Part shown: piece after piece, positions 6,323-61,049 of the stretch
Layout of the letters: every line of letters begins with the position of its first letter
How positions within the stretch are numbered: position 1 is the stretch's first letter
Assembly (NCBI GenBank): GCA_016906335.1
Contig: JADEYG010000007.1
Coordinates: 186,001 to 250,000, forward strand
Direction of reading: 5' to 3'
DNA: 64,000 bases
Source: Novakomyces olei
Taxonomy: Eukaryota
The notes under the pieces: model-generated
Seen by the model: only the letters and a program-made list of their open reading frames with translations
The model's database searches: none
What the model was told of the DNA's origin: nothing
Made by a program: the position numbers and the translations under genes

Positions 6323-7794
6323 ATGCCGCTGGTAATGCCGCGTTTACCGCGGCCACTAGTACAGATCGGACGGTTGCTGCGCGTTATCTGCAGCTATATG
6401 CCTTTTGTAGTCGTCGTGACTTTTGTAACGTTTGGAGGATTGACGCTGCTGTCGCTACACGTCCGTCACGACGCAAGTGTCTTGCGTAAGTTGGTACTGC
6501 CCTCACTCGCTGATCTGTTGAAGGGTACGGTGGACTTATTATTACGCTTTTCCTGTACTGCCTCACAGTGTGGACGTTTTTGTTCTCTATTTTCTGTGAT
6601 CCTGGCTCGCCTTCTGCTTCGACAGCCACTGCCGTAAGTCGTCCTTCCATCCACATTCATCACACGCAGCTAACGGCTTTTTCATAGCACGGATACTCGC
6701 ACTTGCCGACGCACAGTGAGCCGATATCTGTGCTTGTAAAGGGCGACGGTCGCCAGCGGTTTTGCCAAAAATGTCAGTGTCAAAAGGTGAGGCATTCAAT
6801 ATGGGTTTCAGCGTCTTTTACATGTGTTTTACATGTGTTTTACATGTGTTTTACATGTGTTTTACATGTGTTTTACATATTCTAATACACTGCCTGCTGC
6901 AGCTATTATTCTCATAATCTTGTTGCTAACCTCAGCCGGACCGTTCCCACCACTGCAGCTCGTGCGGTCGCTGTATTCTCAAAATGGACCATCATTGTAA
7001 GAAGGCATGCGCACTCTTGCATCGCTAATCTCATAGGTGTCTGGCTGGCTACATGTGTAGGTCTCCGTAACCAGCGGTATTTTGTCCAGTTTTTGGTGTA
7101 CGTTTCCCTATTCGCCCTGTGGTGTTTTGCCAATACTGTGGGAGCCGTGTTTTTTTTCTTCACAGACGAAACGGGTCTCGATCAAATGATCTCCATAAGC
7201 TGGCTCATATGCTGTGTTTTGTCAGGCACACTCGGCCTGCCCATACTGTTTTTCGCGTCTTACCATGTATGGCTCGTGATGCGTAACATGACGACTATTG
7301 AAAACCTGGAAAAAAGCCGCTACAATATACGGCAGCGTGGCGCGTTTGCTACGGCTTCAGACAGGCTGCAGCATATTACTAGACGTCCACGTTTCGCACA
7401 GCCAACCAACAGCAGCGGCAACTACTCTCGTGCAGGCGACAGTAGTCGTGGAGACGAGGCGAGCGTTGACGGGGAAGACGACGACCGTAAACTGATCGGA
7501 AACGCGTTCGATGTAGGCCTTTGCCAGAATTGGGCACAGGTCATGGGTTCGAATCCGATACTGTGGCTCTTCCCGGTGGGAGGCCCGTTTATGGACGGTT
7601 GGTACTGGCCAATAAATTCACGCGCACGTGACGCAGTAGCGCGCAATGTGGAGCGGCAAAAGTTGAGAAACGAGACCCCACAACAACACAAGGTTGAAAA
7701 TGTTCCTCATAGCATGCGGGGTTTAATGGACCAGGCTCTTGAGCGGGCTGAGCAAGCGACGGGGCGTAATGACGGTGATGAAGTGAGCCGCTAA
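6323..7794 (+). CDS. DHHC palmitoyltransferase (Pfa3-like), 5 exons
   Basis: Spliced product reads [44 protein letters not shown], with TTIE motif and NWAQVMG..LWLFP C-terminal motif; four GT-AG introns. Confidence 0.9.
6816..6878. repeat. Intronic minisatellite (TTTTACATGTG) x5.7
   Basis: Perfect 11-bp tandem repeat inside intron 6788-6935 of the DHHC gene. Confidence 0.95.
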
Positions 7795-7964
7795 TAAAAT
7801 TAGAGATGACAGTTTTGAATTAAAAATTTTATTGCTTCTTCCTACAAATGTGTGAGCCAGGTAGACTTGTTCTTTTTATATAATAGAATTTCTTTTCTGC
7901 ATGATTATCTGGTATTAACGTAGTACATTAATTTCTATGCCACGGCTACGCTCGGACTGCTCCA

Positions 7965-16243: not shown

Positions 16244-18102
16244 ATGGCCGTAAGTCCTTTGCATTTCCCTCTTAAATAAAACAATGCTTATATGACAGAA
16301 TCGTCGCCATGGTGCATCATTAGCTGCCCTTTCGGCCGCAGCAGCCGCAGCGGCAAACGGAAATCAAGATGAAAATGCAATTCCGCTGGAACATCAACGC
16401 CGTGGTGGCAAACTTTATGCAAAAGATAAAATGCAACAGACCCTTCCTTCTCAAGCACGTAGAGCTGGACTCGGTGCTGCACAGCGCGTGGCGCTTGGTG
16501 ATCCTAAGCCAAACGATAAAGTTGAAAGGCCTACTGTAGTGCAAAAAGACTATACGGAGATGAATACAGGCATAAGGAGCAAGGCTGCTCGTGTACCACT
16601 GGCCACGAAATCTACGGTAGTTGCATCATCGTCTGTCGCGGAAAATGAGGCGGCAGCTCGGTATGACAGGCTGGCAAACAAGCCAGGAGCTATGAGAGAA
16701 ACTGCTCCCGCTATCTACCAAGACTCGCCTGAAGTTTACGAGTATCATCAAGATCAAGTCGTCGTTGCTGCTCCACAAAGCACAATGGATGTGGATACGG
16801 AAGAAGAGCAAGGTGGTAGTGGTGGAAATAGTGGTATTGCTGACAGCGACGATTTTCGATCAGATTCGTTCACTGACGAAGCGTCTTCCACAGACGCGTC
16901 GCCTAATGAAGGCTACGAGACGCGTGATCCTACGACGCGTCCCGTCCGACGCCATGGCGATGCCACTGCAGTTGTGGGTAGAAAAAGCAGAGAGTCCAAG
17001 AGAGAAAGAGCCGATGGTGAAGCTGCTGCTGCAATTGCTAGTTCTCAAAGCTTTATGATTCAGCAGAGAATAGCAGCGCTGCCAAAGTGCACGGGCAGAC
17101 CTCGTTGGACAGAGCTGGACCAAAGGCATATTGAACAGGCAGCGCAAGCGTACGTAGACCCGGATGCTGAAGAAGAAGAGTGGGATATAAGCATGGTGAG
17201 GGAGTATGCTGATGATATCTTTGAGTACATGCAGGCTCTGGAGCAACGGTTTGCTCCTGACCCAACATACTTGGCTTACCAGACAGAATTAGAAGGTTCA
17301 ATGAGACGAATCCTTATTGATTGGCTGGTACAAGTGCATGCTCGTTTCCATCTTTTGGCAGAGACGCTATTTCTTACTGTGAATATAATTGATCGATTCC
17401 TTAGTGCTCGGCATGATACAGCCCTAGGCAAGTTTCAACTGCTTGGAGCCACTGCCTTGTTTATCGCAAGCAAATACGAAGAAATTCAGTGCCCTTCTGT
17501 GGCAGAAATTGAGTTTATGGTGGACAAAACGTATACACAGGACGAGATAATTGCATGCGAGCGTCACATGATCTCTGTGCTCAATTTCGACCTAGGCTGG
17601 CCAGGTCCAATGAGCTTTCTTCGGCGAGTGAGCAAGGCAGATGATTACGACGTGGATACCCGGACATTGGCTAAGTATATACTGGAGGTGACCATTATGG
17701 ATGAACGGTTTATAGGCGGCCATCCGTCATACCTCGCTGCCGCAAGCCATTTTATTTCGCGAAAAATGCTGAAAAAAGGCGAATGGGTAGGACCGAACTA
17801 AAGGACTTTGCTCAATGCATACGTTTTCTTCTTTTTTCTTTTAAATTTGAATATTTATTCGCAACGTTCTCACTGTTTTGATGTTTTCCTTGAAGGATTT
17901 GTATCTAACCTGACAGACTGATGCACACGTACATTTGAGCGGATACACTGCGCAAGTTCTGGAGCCGGCCGTGGAGACATTGCTTGAATGCCTGCGTGAT
18001 CCAATGACACACCATCGCGCAATTTATGAAAAATACGCGGAACGCAAATTTAAGCGGGCCAGCAAGTACGTCGAGGCCTGGTTCAGTGAGCACTCTTCGT
18101 AA
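16244..18102 (+). CDS. B-type cyclin (Clb3/Cig1-like), 3 exons with a 6-nt first coding exon
   Basis: Cyclin box MRRILIDWLVQVH...KYEEI; LGWPGPMSFLRRVSKADDYD; D-box RVALGD. Splice junctions ATGGCC|gtaagt...gacag|AAT (16250-16298) and TGG|gtagga...ctgacag|ACT. Confidence 0.92.
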
Positions 18103-22300: not shown

Positions 22301-24488
22301 TCGTAGAGTCCTAAAGCCTCTCGGCAAATCTGTCGCCCGGCTGGCTATGGCGATGGAGTTTTTGCTGGAAGAAACAGGGAGGAAACGTGTTAAAGTGCCC
22401 TCTATGGGCACTAGTGGAAGCGTTAGTGGGAGCGTTAGTGGAAGCGACCATGAAAAGCTTGAATTTACAGCCGGCCATCAGCCAAATAATTCTTCTTCTT
22501 TTTCGACACTCCTCTTTGCTGCCTCGAAAAAGCACGAGTCTCCAGTGACGCCTCCTCCTCCTCCACCACCACCACCACCACCTCCACCTCCAGCGGGCGC
22601 TCTGAGATCCGCCTCTGGACAAGACCAGGCGACTCCCGTGCTGGAGCCGGCTAGTGCCGACTCAGAACACCCTGACTACTCTGCTATGGACATTGCGTCG
22701 GCCCGGTATGCGGGTGCAGTTAAAGTGAGAGTGGCACTTGGGGTAGCCGGAGATACTGCCGGTATGGGCCGGGAAAGATTTGCTTCTCAGGGTGATGATT
22801 TAATAAGCAATGAAATCCTCCGTGACCGGCTGGCTCGGATTTCGGACGCTGATAGATCGTCTGATTCATCGGCAGCAGCAGCAGCAGCAGCTGCTGCTGC
22901 TGGCAATAGTAGTACTGGATTTGTATCAACTGCCTCTGCTGCGCTGAGAGGTCCTCGTCGAGGTGGCCCTACGGAGGTTATCAGGCCCTGGTTCCTTGAT
23001 CCTGAGCTGGAGGGGGATATTAGCTACAACCCTGATGGCAGTGTACGTGGAGGCACGTTAAAGGCACTGGTAGAAATGCTGACAAGGCATGATTACCTGA
23101 GCCAAAGTTTCTACCGTACTTTTCTCTTGACCTATAGCACATTTACAAATTCCTTTGTACTGGCAGGCCTTCTTATCGATCGGTTTATGATTGCTCCACC
23201 TGCTGGATTAGAAGCAGCTGATGCAAGAGTCTGGCGGGACAAGAAGCAGGTGCCCGTACGGCTGCGTGTATTCAATTTCTTAAAGACTTGGCTGGAAAAG
23301 TACTATATACCAGCGCCCGATGTTGCCCTTGACTTGGAGGCGCTGACGCGAATACGTACTTTTGCAATTCAGGAAATTGCAAAGTACCTGGCGGGAAGCA
23401 ACACGATTGTTCACCTGGCAGACGCACAATTGGCCCGTGCCCGACAAGCTTCTTCTGGTGGCTCTTCGGCGATAGGCAATAATGGAGTACTAAGGTCGCC
23501 GGACTCTGATAACAGCAGTGTTTCCAGTGCTTCAGGATCAGCAACGCCTCATACAAGGCTTCGCCGGATGGTTATTAACTTGTCTTCCTCTTCTCCAGCT
23601 CCTTTGCTGCCTAAAAACTTGCGTAAAGGCTTTCGTCTTTTGGATATTGATGCCACCGAGCTGGCGCGCCAGCTTACAGTAATGGAGAGCAATATCTATA
23701 ACCAGCTACAGCCATACGAGTGTCTCAACAAGGCCTGGAGCCGGCAAGACAGCCTTCACAAGGCTGAGCATATAAAGGCAATGATCTTGAACTCGAATAG
23801 GGTATCACTAAACATTGTTGCACACTTGGCATGCTAACCTTAGATTACCGGCTGGATTACAGAGTCTGTTCTAGAACAGAACGATGTCAGACGGCGTGCG
23901 GCACTCTACAAGTATTTTGTTACGGTGGCGGCGGTATGTCGTAACTCCCTTTCCTCTACTAACAGCTAGAAATGCCATGAGCTCAACAACTTTTCGACAC
24001 TGACGGCAATAATATCCGGGCTTAATAGTGCGCCAGTGCATCGTTTAAAGCGGACCAAAGAAATGGTCAACAGCAAATCACATGGCATTTTAGATCAACT
24101 TAATCAGTTAATGAGCCCAACTCGGAATTTCGGACAGTATCGTGAAGTTATGAGATTACTGAATCCTCCGGCCGTACCATTTCTTGGTGTCTACCTGTCA
24201 GATTTGACCTTTATTGAAGACGGTAATCCGGGAATGATAAAACAATCACGGAACTTGATCAACTTCCACAAACGCACAAAGCTGGCTGAAGTTATTCGAG
24301 ATATTCAACAGTACCAGTTCATGCCCTACAATCTGCAGCCTGTTCCCGAGATCCAGGCAGCGATTCAAGAATGGCTTGAGAAGGCTAAAGATATCGGGGA
24401 ATTGTACGATATAAGCCTGTACGTGGAGCCACGAGAGCGCGAAGACGAGAAAATTGCGCGACTTTTGAGTGAAAGCGGGTTTTTGTAA
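19369..24488 (+). CDS. Ras guanine nucleotide exchange factor (Cdc25/Ste6 family): SH3, WW, RasGEF_N and RasGEF domains; 4 exons
   Basis: SH3 ALYNF...WWNG...GWFPSNYV; WW EGKIYYYNTQSGTASWSLP; GGTLKALVEMLT; ELARQLT; PAVPFLGVYLSDLTFIEDGN. First intron is GC-AG (19749-19909). Confidence 0.93.
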
Positions 24489-43798: not shown

Positions 43799-44878
43799 AT
43801 GAGCTGTAATGGCGACGAGCCGAGTGCAATAGACACAGAGACGCCGGAGGACCAAGTGCCGCAGGCGCCGAGGTGTTCATGTCAGGCAATTCTAAACTGC
43901 CAGTTTTCGTCGTGGTATGCTTTGTTCCAAGCGTTGACTCCCCGAGCACGCATTATTCGGCCGTTAAGTAAAGCGTTTGTGGACTATTTGTTGGCGGACG
44001 GGATCGTTTTGCCTGACGATGACGAAACTGACGCGGAACATGATACGACAGGAAATGGGAGTGACAGCGACGACGATAATAGTGCAATTAAAGCGCTATT
44101 ACAGGAGATGCGCCCAGAGCACGACAGAATAAAGCAAATTATTACAGAATTAAATGGCTCGGTTGTGCCAAAGACGAATTGGTCGACACCTCGTGATGCT
44201 GCATGGATGATTGCGGGAAATACAATGAAATGCACGTCTCCGTCTGATGTTTATTTGCTATTAAAATCTTCTGATTTTGTCATGCATGACTTGACTCATA
44301 CATTTGATGATTGCTACGACGGGCCTCTCCCTGTCCAGTTCGAGCTGGTGCTTAAGGAATGGTTTGATATGGTGCCCGCTATGGAGTTTCGTTGCTTTGT
44401 GCGCAACAGGCGCTTGGTAGCGGCATGCCAAAGAGACTATGCAAATCACTATGACTTTTTGGAGGATATGAACGGAGAGATTATTGACTCTCTCTCTGTG
44501 TTGGCCACGCCTCTCTGCCTCGAGTTTACCGATGGAGACTTTGTGTTTGACGCGTATTTGCAAAGATCCTCCGCAAATCGCGCTTGGCTTATTGATATTA
44601 ATCCTTATGCAGCACGAACGGATACTCTGCTCTTTACCTGGGCAGAAATTGATCACATTGCGGAGACACTTGGCGATAGGCTTCCAGAGCTACGCCTTGT
44701 CCCCTCCGGAACCGGTGCTAGTGGTGCCGGTTCTGGTGCTGCTGCCATGTCCACTAACCGTGTCCCTTTAGATGTGGTGTATGCCAGCCAGGGCCAGAAC
44801 GTGGCCGAGTTTGCGCAAACATGGCAAGAGATGCTGGCACAGGGCGTTCAGGATACGTTGGAAAATGGTCAAGTGTAA
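43799..44878 (+). CDS. CDC123: Cdc123/D123 eIF2 assembly factor
   Basis: CQFSSWY, YLLADGIVLP, PKTNWSTPRDAAW, VYLLLKSSDF, EFRCFVRNRRLVA..QRD, LIDINPY...TDTLLFTW. Confidence 0.93.
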   Translation: MSCNGDEPSAIDTETPEDQVPQAPRCSCQAILNCQFSSWYALFQALTPRARIIRPLSKAFVDYLLADGIVLPDDDETDAEHDTTGNGSDSDDDNSAIKALLQEMRPEHDRIKQIITELNGSVVPKTNWSTPRDAAWMIAGNTMKCTSPSDVYLLLKSSDFVMHDLTHTFDDCYDGPLPVQFELVLKEWFDMVPAMEFRCFVRNRRLVAACQRDYANHYDFLEDMNGEIIDSLSVLATPLCLEFTDGDFVFDAYLQRSSANRAWLIDINPYAARTDTLLFTWAEIDHIAETLGDRLPELRLVPSGTGASGAGSGAAAMSTNRVPLDVVYASQGQNVAEFAQTWQEMLAQGVQDTLENGQV

Positions 44879-57483: not shown

Positions 57484-57844
57484 CGCTGACACACAGCTCT
57501 GGCTTTGGCTGACGATAGCTGCGACAGGCAAGATTATCGTTGAATGATTATTATTATGGCTGAACAGTTGGTTATAATTAATTCTCGCATTAGCTTAGGG
57601 TTTGTTAGGGTTTAATATATTTCAATTTCTCGTTCGCCATACAAATTGAAAAATTTAAGCGTGCATAATCATTAAGGTTTAGTTAGTATGCCGTCATTTA
57701 TATTATATGGTTATATGGGCAGCCCCCCTTCGATTTTGGCTTATTAGTAACAACATACTTGAGGGTTTTTTTATATGGAACGATATCAGATCAAATCAAT
57801 CAGATAATTTCGTTGGGCAAAAACACGATTAAGAGCAAACAGCA

Positions 57845-58828
57845 ATGCCGGCTAAGCTGCAGAGCATCGATGATCTAAAGGCGTTTGTGTCAAACAGCAG
57901 CGGCGCATTAATAGTGCTTAACTTTTATGCAGATTGGGCCGTGCCATGCCAGCAAATGAACCAGGCCTTTAATGAGCTGGAGCTTTTATTCCCGACCACG
58001 AAATTTGCAAATGTAACTTTTATGAGGAACAGCAATGGACAGTTTTGTTAATAAATAGGTTGAAGCCGAGCAAGCGGCTGATCTTTCAGAGAGCTTTGAC
58101 GTACAGGCTGTACCACTGTTTGCTATCATTAAGGTGAGATTGAACAGTCTAACAAAATTTATTGCTAATTCAATTGCCAGGTAACGATCGTTTGGCATTA
58201 GAGCACTTATTAATACTTTAGGTATTTCTAAGCATTTCGAACCGATTTTAACGTTATAGGTATCGCATACAGTGTATTCAGTGGTACTAACGGTATATAG
58301 GGCACACGGGTAGTAGCACGCATATCTGGCGCAAATCCTACAGAACTCCAAAAGACGATACAAAAGTACGCTGACTCGAATGGTGAAGCAGCTCCGTCCG
58401 CAGATGCAGCGGTGGTCGATTCACAAGAGCAGCACGCCGAAGAGACAGATAATTCAGGCGATATAAATGCACGACTAGCTAGTCTTGTTAAAGCCAAGCC
58501 TGTCATGCTGTTTATGAAGGGAAGCCCTAATGCTCCACAATGTGGATTTTCGCGGCAGCTGGTTGGCTTGCTGCGCGACCGTAATGTTCAGTACGGGTTT
58601 TTCGATATTTTACAGGACGACGATGTTCGACAGGGAATGAAAAGTTTTTCTGAATGGCCTACGTAAGTTGCTATTACGCACAAATTGAACTTATGTTGAA
58701 TTTTAAGGTTCCCTCAATTGTATATTGGCGGAGAATTCCAAGGCGGCTTGGATGTCGTGAAAGAAATGATTGAACAAGGTGAATTCGATCAAATAATAAA
58801 GCAGACGGAAGGGGCGCTGCTGCAGTGA
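57845..58828 (+). CDS. GRX4: Monothiol glutaredoxin Grx3/4 (Trx-like domain plus CGFS Grx domain); coding exons 57845-58012, 58059-58133, 58301-58662, 58708-58828
   Basis: [61 protein letters not shown]. Confidence 0.95.
58134..58300 (+). other. Complex intervening sequence of four back-to-back minimal U2 introns (47, 41, 38 and 41 nt) with zero-length exons
   Basis: Units 58134-58180, 58181-58221, 58222-58259 and 58260-58300 each have a GT donor, a branch-point-like hexamer and a YAG acceptor; all internal junctions are AG|GTA. Confidence 0.75.
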
Positions 58829-58952
58829 TGTAGTTCTAGAGCATGCCTATTACACGGGGTTGACGTACCTTCTACTTTTTTCATGACATATCGTATTGTA
58901 TGCTTTTGTTAATTCTGGTTTTGACACATCTAAGCGCCAGTACCAATAATCT

Positions 58953-61049
58953 CTAAACTCGTTCTGTATCCGTAATTTTATAGGGGTCGTAAAGTTCCTT
59001 TTTAACATACTCCAAAAGCTGTACGTCGCTCATGCCTTTGATCTCCTGATTGCGACTTACACCGTCATTTACTGCTGCTTTTGCCACGTACGAAGAGATT
59101 ACGGAGGACAAATCGCGAATTCTACCCAGTTCCGGGTATATAAGCCCCGATTCTTGCTCACTGTCAAGCAACTGCGAAGAAAGAGCTTCCGACGACGCAA
59201 AAATCATGTTCTCTGTGACTACTTTGGCTTTTGAAATAATAGAACCATGGCCCAAACCTGGGAACACGTACATGTTGTTTCCTAGTGTCTGTTAGCATTC
59301 ATAGATTAGTTGTGCGTTCTTTACCCTGGCCAGCACGGTAGGTTTTGCCCTTGTATTCAACATCTGCAAATGGACTTCCGCTAGCAAAAATGACACGCCC
59401 GTCTGTATTCTTTATAGCACTTTCAAATGTACATTCAGATTTAGACGAGGGATTACTGAGCGGAAAAACAATTGGCCGCTTATTTATTTCACTCATTCTA
59501 TGCAGGACTTTATCCGTAAAAGCACCACCCTGTACCCGTTAGCCGCGTAATGTTTGTATTAAAAAATAAAATAAATTTCTGAAACTAAAATTGCATACCA
59601 CCGTCGCCAGCCCCACAAGCGCTGTAGGCTTCACGTAATCAATGATGTCCACTAGTTCTTTGTATTGTTTGCCATTATTGTCCTTGCGAGCAAAATACTG
59701 TTTGTGTTCCGGCAATTCGTCTCCTCGGTCAAATGTTACGAGTCCCTTGCTATCAACAAGCCAAATTTTGGCTCGTGCTTCGTCCTCGCTGATTCCAGAA
59801 TCTCTCATTATCCATTTTGCTAAAAGCTGTCCCACACCAACTGCCGCAGAGCCCGCCCCAAAAAATACAATCCTCTGGTCTGTTGACTCTGCATGTGGCT
59901 GGGCCTTCGACTGTATTTTGACTGCCGTCTGGTAGCCTGATAAAATTACAGAGGCAGTTCCCTGAATATCATCATTGAAACAGCAATATGTCTTCTTGTA
60001 TCGGTCGAGGTAAGCGAAAGCGTTTTCTGTTTCAAAATCTTCAAACTATTTTTGGGTTAGAAAATACAACAAAAGATACCAGCTCACCTGAACAACACAA
60101 CCCGGAAACTTCTGGTGCACGGCAGCCATAAATTCGTCCATAAACTCATGCTGCTGATCAACGGGGATTCGACGTTCTCTCAGCCCGAGATAAAGTTCAT
60201 CTTTCAAATTGTCTTCATTGTTGGTGCCAAAGTCGATAACAACAGGCATTGTTTTATGTGGATAAATCCCAGCACAGGCAACATACAGGCTCAGTTTTCC
60301 CTGCGGGATTCCCATGCCATTCAAGCCCAAGTCCCCCAGACCAAGAATACGACCACCGTCAGTCACCACTATGATGTCAGGCACTTGTGTCCAGTGCTGC
60401 AGAGCTTCGGCCACCCGGCCTTTCGATTTGTATGACAAAAACAAGCCTTCAGGGCTGGTGTATATGTGTGAGAATTTTTGGCAGCCTTCGCCTACTGTTG
60501 GAGTATAAACTAAAGGCGTATATTTCTGACGATAAGCATTTTGTTTCAAAGGGATAAAAATAAAATAATGAATGAATGAATGAATGAATGGCAAAATTAT
60601 TAAAAATCAGAAACATTACCGTAATATCGTTTATCAGTAGTTTGTAAAGTAGGTGAGGGCTACGAATACGCAGTTCAGCCTGTCAGTTAGATTGCTATTC
60701 TCTCAGAGTGTCTTACCAAATACTGAAACTTGGCGAGGTCGGTATCGCGCTCGCTCAACTGCTTTTCAATACGCTTTTTCTGAGTGGCCCAGGCCTCAAC
60801 AGAAGAGGGTAGAAGACCTTCCAAGCCGTAACGTCTGCGTGACGACTCTGAGAAGCTGGAGTCCATATTGTTCCATGTCATTTGTGCCACAGCGCCCTTA
60901 TCGGGTTCATTGGCGTCTCCACAGTTGAAATCGAGCAGATCAGACTGGCTGGAAGTTCCAGCCTCTCGGCTTCCACGAAACGCACGGTTGATATAGGCAA
61001 ACATGGTGCTTTTTGGCCGGAGCAGAGACTTTGAGCGCGCAGCAAGCAT
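58953..61049 (-). CDS. NAD(P)-dependent malic enzyme, probably mitochondrial, 6 exons
   Basis: PLVYTPTVG, VVTDGGRILGLGDLG, Q|FEDF, FNDDIQGT, FFGAGSAAVG, PLSNPSS, ASGSPF, QG|NNMYVFPG; Arg-rich N-terminus. Confidence 0.94.

Follow-up and report, generated by a model that had tools for sequence, protein, structure and literature searches.

Four abutting intron-like units at one exon junction of a fungal Grx3/4 glutaredoxin gene: a candidate for stepwise splicing through zero-length exons

Known multi-step splicing systems and the anatomy of the array

Recursive splicing through zero-nucleotide exons is classical for the very long introns of Drosophila and mammals. Where a 3' splice site directly abuts a 5' splice site within a stretch that is removed, one exon junction can form in several steps. 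For Drosophila, Ubx and 196 ratchet points genome-wide are described (bioRxiv 10.1101/006163), and spliceosome profiling in S. pombe identified two zero-length-exon cases, including the 336-nt intron of SPNCRNA.445 (10.1101/226894). Spliceosome profiling likewise revealed that the 375-nt BOT1 intron of C. neoformans is split into segments of 210 and 165 nt and is removed recursively (10.1101/224170). These 336-nt and 375-nt cases show that recursion at AG/GT sites, which a preliminary description of the locus reported here cited from very long animal introns, is no longer known from those alone (the slash marks a junction throughout). Zero-length-exon splicing is already known in yeasts, and the new element at this locus is a run of abutting minimal introns. 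Outside supplementary tables and most subscription journals (Table S2 of 10.1101/226894 may list more zero-length exons), our literature search found no such run.

Complex intervening sequences are also described in fungi as stwintrons, one form being the Lipomyces "stwintron sensu lato", whose donors abut (PMC7138796, PMC9024468, PMC8469720). In a stwintron, an internal intron splits the donor, branch-point or acceptor element of an external one, which works only once the internal intron has been excised, so that the order of removal is forced. The human polyubiquitin gene UBC carries tandem dual-specific AGGT sites, each used as both a 5' and a 3' splice site (PMC10809524); as described there, the sites delimit coding repeats, and the products differ in how many monomers they contain.

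The array analysed here lies on the forward strand at 58134-58300 of the window, by which we mean the whole 64-kb stretch of DNA under study. Direct reading of the sequence revealed that the 167 nt between the codons AAG (58131-58133) and GGC (58301-58303) consist of four end-to-end units with no remainder. Units A, B, C and D are, in that order, 47, 41, 38 and 41 nt long, and every one of them starts with GTR, carries a YTAAY branch motif 8-12 nt before its end and finishes with YAG. Unit A (58134-58180) reads GTGAGA...GCTAAT...CAG, with its CTAAT at 58165-58169 and the branch A 12 nt from the end; an extra CTAAC is present inside the unit at 58149-58153. Unit B (58181-58221) reads GTAACG...ATTAAT...TAG, with TTAAT at 58210-58214 and 8 nt to the end, and unit C (58222-58259) reads GTATTT...TTTAAC...TAG, with TTAAC at 58248-58252 and likewise 8 nt to the end. 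The branch motifs of units B and C are of the less common TTAAY type. Unit D (58260-58300) reads GTATCG...TACTAAC...TAG, with CTAAC at 58287-58291 and 10 nt to the end. The outermost signals of the array are its strongest donor, that of unit A, which alone among the four has G at position +5, and a perfect TACTAAC box, that of unit D.

All three internal junctions are AG/GTA, namely CAG/GTAACG at 58180/58181, TAG/GTATTT at 58221/58222 and TAG/GTATCG at 58259/58260, and they represent the first, second and third candidate zero-length exons. Each internal 3' site is preceded by a branch motif, as judged from the motif itself (CTAAT, TTAAT and TTAAC at 12, 8 and 8 nt, respectively). The coordinates and sequence strings assigned to the four units in the preliminary description all proved correct on re-reading, and its picture of four complete minimal introns with three AG/GTA junctions in a row was borne out by the sequence.

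The array resembles recursive splicing in that a 3' site abuts a 5' site (AG/GT) inside a stretch that is wholly removed. It differs in packing three such points consecutively into 167 nt, with segments of 38-47 nt as against approximately 165-210 nt to tens of kilobases in the published cases, and in interrupting a protein-coding frame; the use of the sites is here predicted from sequence. In animals the host intron is unusually long, whereas the 167 nt of the array lie within the 93-257 nt range of the longer introns in the same window. With stwintrons the array shares its occurrence as a complex intervening sequence in an ascomycete, consecutive standard splicing as the envisaged mode of removal and, as proposed in the stwintron papers cited above, a possible birth from sites that arose inside an intron. 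Its units, however, stand side by side and are not nested, so that any order of removal is possible. Classification as a stwintron was rejected, since GTR, YTAAY and YAG are intact in each unit and no element is split. The likeness to UBC lies in the series of AG/GT sites, each a possible acceptor for the previous unit and donor for the next; the units of the array, however, are unrelated non-coding mini-introns, and only their full removal gives a protein.

The Grx3/4 host gene and the removal of all 167 nt

Joining 57845-58012, 58059-58133, 58301-58662 and 58708-58828, all on the forward strand, gave an open frame of 241 amino acids. Exon 1 (57845-58012), with the ATG at 57845, encodes the N-terminal part of a Trx-like domain according to the open frame and the splice model. 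It is followed by intron 1 (58013-58058; 46 nt, phase 0, GTAACT...GTTAAT...TAG) and by exon 2 (58059-58133), whose 25 codons end in ...FAIIK directly before the array. Comparison with Grx3/4/GRXS17 homologues showed that exon 3 (58301-58662) encodes the end of the Trx-like domain, a linker and a Grx domain with the CGFS motif. The last intron (58663-58707; 45 nt, phase 2, GTAAGT...AAG) separates it from exon 4 (58708-58828), which closes with a TGA stop codon at 58826-58828.

The Pfam Glutaredoxin profile matched exon 3 with an E-value of 9e-12, and the Thioredoxin profile matched exon 1, scanned alone, with an E-value of 1e-4 and 22.7 bits, just below the cut-off of 23.5. The translation, the Pfam matches and 120 homologues together show the Grx3/4 layout of a Trx-like domain and a CGFS-bearing Grx domain. 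The 241-aa product is colinear with its homologues among the Grx3/Grx4 (PICOT-type) monothiol glutaredoxins and has the same two domains; no difference at the protein level was noted, the single Grx domain being as in fungi.

As regards the host lineage, the D123/Cdc123 protein encoded in the window (43799-44875) had its closest named relatives in Saitoella (47% identity), Schizosaccharomyces (46-48%) and Taphrina (45%), with 57% in a further contig. Exact matches to six intron-free proteins of the window were absent from a collection of 15 billion proteins. The D123/Cdc123 identities point to an early-diverging ascomycete of the Taphrinomycotina kind as the probable host.

Local blastp analysis revealed that 111 of the 120 Grx3/4/GRXS17 homologues align across the array junction, 105 of the 111 without any gap at residues 74-90. 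Together with the open 241-aa frame, these alignments uphold the earlier statement that excision of the 167 nt restores the Trx-domain sequence. Retention of units was uniformly destructive, with 15 of 15 combinations ending the protein at 106 aa or fewer, before the CGFS domain. It follows that the array contains no hidden micro-exon and yields no alternative protein isoform; both candidates were rejected on this basis, and the earlier conclusion that none of the units is a coding micro-exon holds. The preliminary description had ascribed a stop codon to units B and C and a frameshift to units A and D. The in-frame stops of B and C are present, but the frameshift is not confined to A and D: all four units are of length 3n+2, so each of them shifts the frame.

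Members of the Grx3/4 family sense iron through an Fe-S cluster, and the array had been proposed to act as a kinetic or NMD-coupled throttle on this iron regulator. As a selected regulatory device, it would tune Grx4, for example by iron, through obligatory splicing cycles or through incomplete splicing combined with NMD. The truncation of every partial product before the CGFS domain would indeed make incomplete removal unproductive, although truncation upon retention holds for almost any intron. A link between splicing and NMD is described in S. pombe for one splicing-factor gene (10.1101/226894), but nothing ties the present array to iron or to any other signal. The search for an RNA structure bridging the outer splice sites gave folding no better than that of shuffled sequences (z = 0.11), and no Rfam family matched within the intron at E <= 1. 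The iron throttle thus found no support in the fold or in Rfam, and we regard a regulatory device of this kind as a slim prospect. The array is probably neutral rather than regulatory, and it carries no message yet about iron regulation. A snoRNA or other RNA hosted in the array, and a structured regulatory RNA, likewise lack support in view of these results.

Introns of the window, tests against chance and the splicing route

Genes in the window were modelled by codon-usage dynamic programming with a flat intron-length prior. Because this model over-predicts long introns on non-coding strands, we accepted only introns with plausible signals in coherent genes; the resulting set of 23 short and 8 long introns is our own selection from a crude gene model. 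The short introns measured 36-75 nt with a median of 45 nt (e.g., 23934-23969 and 37693-37656), and the long ones 93-257 nt (e.g., 17787-17916, 12510-12336 and 8660-8511). Through its greedy choice of strand, the model had also swapped the Grx4 gene for a false antisense model. On the reverse strand, a 144-codon open frame at 57986-58420 runs antisense to the whole array and to portions of exons 2 and 3; this ORF, which the crude gene model chose in error, is probably fortuitous.

Contiguity along Pfam profiles provided an exact check for four short introns and one long intron only. RasGEF profile positions 48 and 79, on either side of a 30-aa exon, confirmed the introns at 23802 (42 nt) and 23934 (36 nt), while the Malic_M positions 119/121 and 187/189 confirmed those at 59598 (69 nt) and 59324 (43 nt). 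The 130-nt intron at 17787-17916 was confirmed exactly by Cyclin_C positions 64/65, and Aminotran_5 positions 192/198 supported the 150-nt intron at 8660-8511 approximately. Two further observations concern predicted introns. On the forward strand, an 11-nt tandem repeat (GTGTTTTACAT, approximately 5-6 copies) occurs at about 6790-6860 in a predicted intron of the gene model at 6323-7795. On the reverse strand, a (CATT)n microsatellite occurs at about 60530-60570 within the malic enzyme gene's first long intron; the acceptor that the model assigned to this intron, 60455, is probably wrong, because an open frame with the conserved YTPTVGE motif begins further upstream.

The preliminary description had called the units ordinary in size and in branch-to-AG spacing. 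This assessment stands: at 38-47 nt and 8-12 nt, respectively, they fall within the short introns of the window, whose branch A mostly stands 6-16 nt from the 3' end. The pooled short introns contained 35.5% T and 30% A, and the pooled long introns 43% T and 21% A; the presence of two intron classes in the window, a short mode of 36-53 nt and a tail of 93-257 nt, suggests two recognition modes. In composition the array fits the 21 short introns outside the Grx4 gene (chi-square p = 0.98) and differs from the 8 long, T-rich introns (chi-square p = 0.0022).

To judge the array against chance, we defined a strict unit (GTR...YAG, 35-55 nt, with YTRAY and the branch A 6-15 nt from the end) and a loose unit (GT...AG, 30-80 nt, with NTRAY 5-25 nt from the end). 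These criteria were fixed after the units and the introns of the window had been inspected, and the following frequencies are to be read with that in mind. Strict tiling was found in 0 of 200,000 dinucleotide-preserving shuffles of the array interior; with the loose definition, 15 of the 200,000 could be tiled into four units and 569 into three. A scan of the window on both strands yielded 180 strict candidates, among which the only chain of two or more was the four-unit chain at 58134-58300. With the loose unit, chains of four on either strand were confined to variants of this same stretch. Loose chains of three numbered two, one at 58190-58300, which is a shorter variant of the array, and one on the reverse strand at 9597-9454, and there were 119 loose chains of two (55 on the forward and 64 on the reverse strand). 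The strict filter was passed by 4 of 4 units as against 15 of the 23 accepted short introns. The junction module YTAAY-N4-13-YAG/GTR occurred seven times in 128 kb, with three of the seven inside the array at spacings of 45 and 38 nt. It is very unlikely, even allowing for the many fungal windows that have been read, that the array arose by chance. Only one such array occurs in the 64 kb.

From its sequence, we consider the array a rather probable case of four autonomous mini-introns, with three zero-length exons between them, that are removed by successive reactions. In fungi with short introns, such as S. pombe, splice sites are paired across the intron and near partners are preferred (intron definition). 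Under this mode, a donor would join the closest branch point and 3' site that can be used; since near partners are preferred, the first donor should mostly pick the branch point 35 nt away and not the one at 157 nt. During transcription, the donor of unit A would pair with the branch point inside A, 35 nt downstream, and A would be excised first. Exon 2 would then adjoin the donor of B (AAG/GTAACG), and B, C and D would follow in the same manner. One spliceosome would cover an intron of 38-47 nt almost wholly, and every junction brings a 3' site into contact with the following 5' site, so that adjacent units are probably not committed together; removal would be sequential because neighbouring units probably cannot be engaged simultaneously. 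Such an array would be robust, as any forward pairing of donor and acceptor yields the identical final mRNA.

The alternative is a single ordinary 167-nt intron that leaves in one step, running from the donor at 58134 to the acceptor at 58300 and branching at 58290 within TACTAAC. Its internal sites would be used rarely or never, as relics of former introns or as harmless cryptic sites that give the same final mRNA. One-step removal is feasible, because introns well above 100 nt were verified here, and introns of 93-257 nt, verified or plausible, occur in the same window. The array, however, has the composition of the short introns and not of the long ones. Moreover, tiling into units of intron size failed for all other predicted long introns; three of these carry one AG/GT, which does not divide them in this way. 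Strongest signals at the outermost positions are what would be expected if the outer pair belonged to the original intron or to the main one: of the four donors, the outer one alone has +5 G, and the outer branch box is a perfect consensus. The +5 G is missing in 3 of 4 unit donors as against 7 of the 31 accepted introns (present in 1/4 and 24/31, respectively). Donors without it nevertheless function in this genome, as the contiguity of Pfam profiles confirmed for aggGTATCA (23802) and aggGTAAAG (59324); compensation of a missing +5 G by AG at positions -2/-1 was not significant among the accepted introns (Fisher p = 0.56). Complete internal signal sets far above chance expectation also argue against one-step removal, and under intron definition, as established for fungi, the three nearer pairs of branch point and 3' site should compete with the distal one. 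On this evidence, exclusive or nearly exclusive one-step removal appears possible but rather unlikely.

The internal splice sites are thus, in our estimate, somewhat likely to be in appreciable use. A mixture of stepwise and one-step routes is quite possible, and a complex intron of Lipomyces starkeyi is described as leaving in either one step or two (PMC7138796). A more far-reaching version of the stepwise reading holds that all three AG/GT sites are used in vivo, that a single junction in a gene of the essential type is built by up to four consecutive spliceosome cycles acting on introns of 38-47 nt, and that the whole represents a split or stacked ancient intron. Judged from the sequence, this version may be right or wrong with roughly equal probability. 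If true, the array would hold more consecutive zero-length exons, and shorter recursive segments, than any case described, a miniature counterpart to the recursive splicing of giant animal introns in a lineage with a spliceosome that prefers introns of about 40 nt.

Use of the internal sites would make the locus a natural test case for spliceosome assembly where minimal introns have a zero-length exon in common. It would allow steric exclusion, the order of removal and help or hindrance between neighbours to be probed, would test whether intron-definition systems always choose the nearest partner, and would bear on how one site comes to hold several introns, by multiplication or by splitting. 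The locus also matters for annotation, in which an array of this kind is entered as a single long intron.

Age of the intron position, origin of the array and flanks of the gene

A metagenome scan for Grx homologues revealed 16 loci, all of them distant and none with more than 44% identity across the whole exon. Two plant-like loci of the GRXS17 type (L004 and L005) have introns at both Trx-domain positions, both in phase 0. One position precedes VEAE and equals that of intron 1; the other, after ...FFK and before DGKTV, equals the array site. In L005 these introns lie at 1846-1929 and 2000-2486, the second being approximately 485 nt long. In another locus (L002), an acceptor at about 1330 lies directly 5' of DGVVVDKLEGANP. 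The array site therefore has counterparts outside the window and is an intron position of old standing, or at the least a recurrent one; because the plant-like GRXS17 loci share this phase-0 position, at least one of the units probably descends from an old intron.

Units A-D are mutually dissimilar (alignment z between -0.05 and 0.77) and also unlike the flanking introns. No other copy of any unit was found in the 64-kb window, the longest match being 11 nt. These results bear on a further alternative, in which one intron or a mobile introner-like element multiplied recently in tandem and has not yet been purged. New introns have been described to arise by tandem duplication of a segment containing AGGT, a route discussed in PMC7138796 and PMC10809524, but recent multiplication would be hard to reconcile with pairwise z-scores of at most 0.77 and with the lack of a second copy of any unit within the window. 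A recent tandem duplication or repeat element was rejected for these reasons, and we regard the alternative as exceedingly improbable. Since the units are unrelated and yet all of their signals are intact, the signals appear to have been maintained and not to be leftovers of recent duplication. Diverged interiors with intact signals would fit a long-standing function of the units as mini-introns; the neutral decay of unused sites, as entailed by one-step removal, would be expected to look different.

The likely origin of the array is one of two routes. An older, longer intron may have gained internal splice sites, or extra introns may have been stacked at the same AG/G site. Splitting of an older intron and repeated gain at a proto-splice site explain the data equally well, and the data do not separate them. 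The origin by internal sites resembles the "stwintronisation" proposed for Lipomyces, which starts from a long primordial intron (PMC7138796).

The flanks of the Grx4 gene showed two further features. Two telomere-type TTAGGG motifs lie at 57595-57613 (TTAGGGTTTGTTAGGGTTT), approximately 235-250 nt 5' of the Grx4 ATG, in a 420-nt divergent intergenic region that is common to Grx4 and a minus-strand gene for an RRM protein; the motifs could serve a TTAGGG-binding factor as a promoter element. On the other side, the Grx4 stop codon (58826-58828) is separated by the gap 58829-58952 from that of the malic enzyme gene, which converges on it from the minus strand (model end 58953). Because the two stops are only approximately 124 nt apart, the 3' UTRs of Grx4 and the malic enzyme gene probably overlap.
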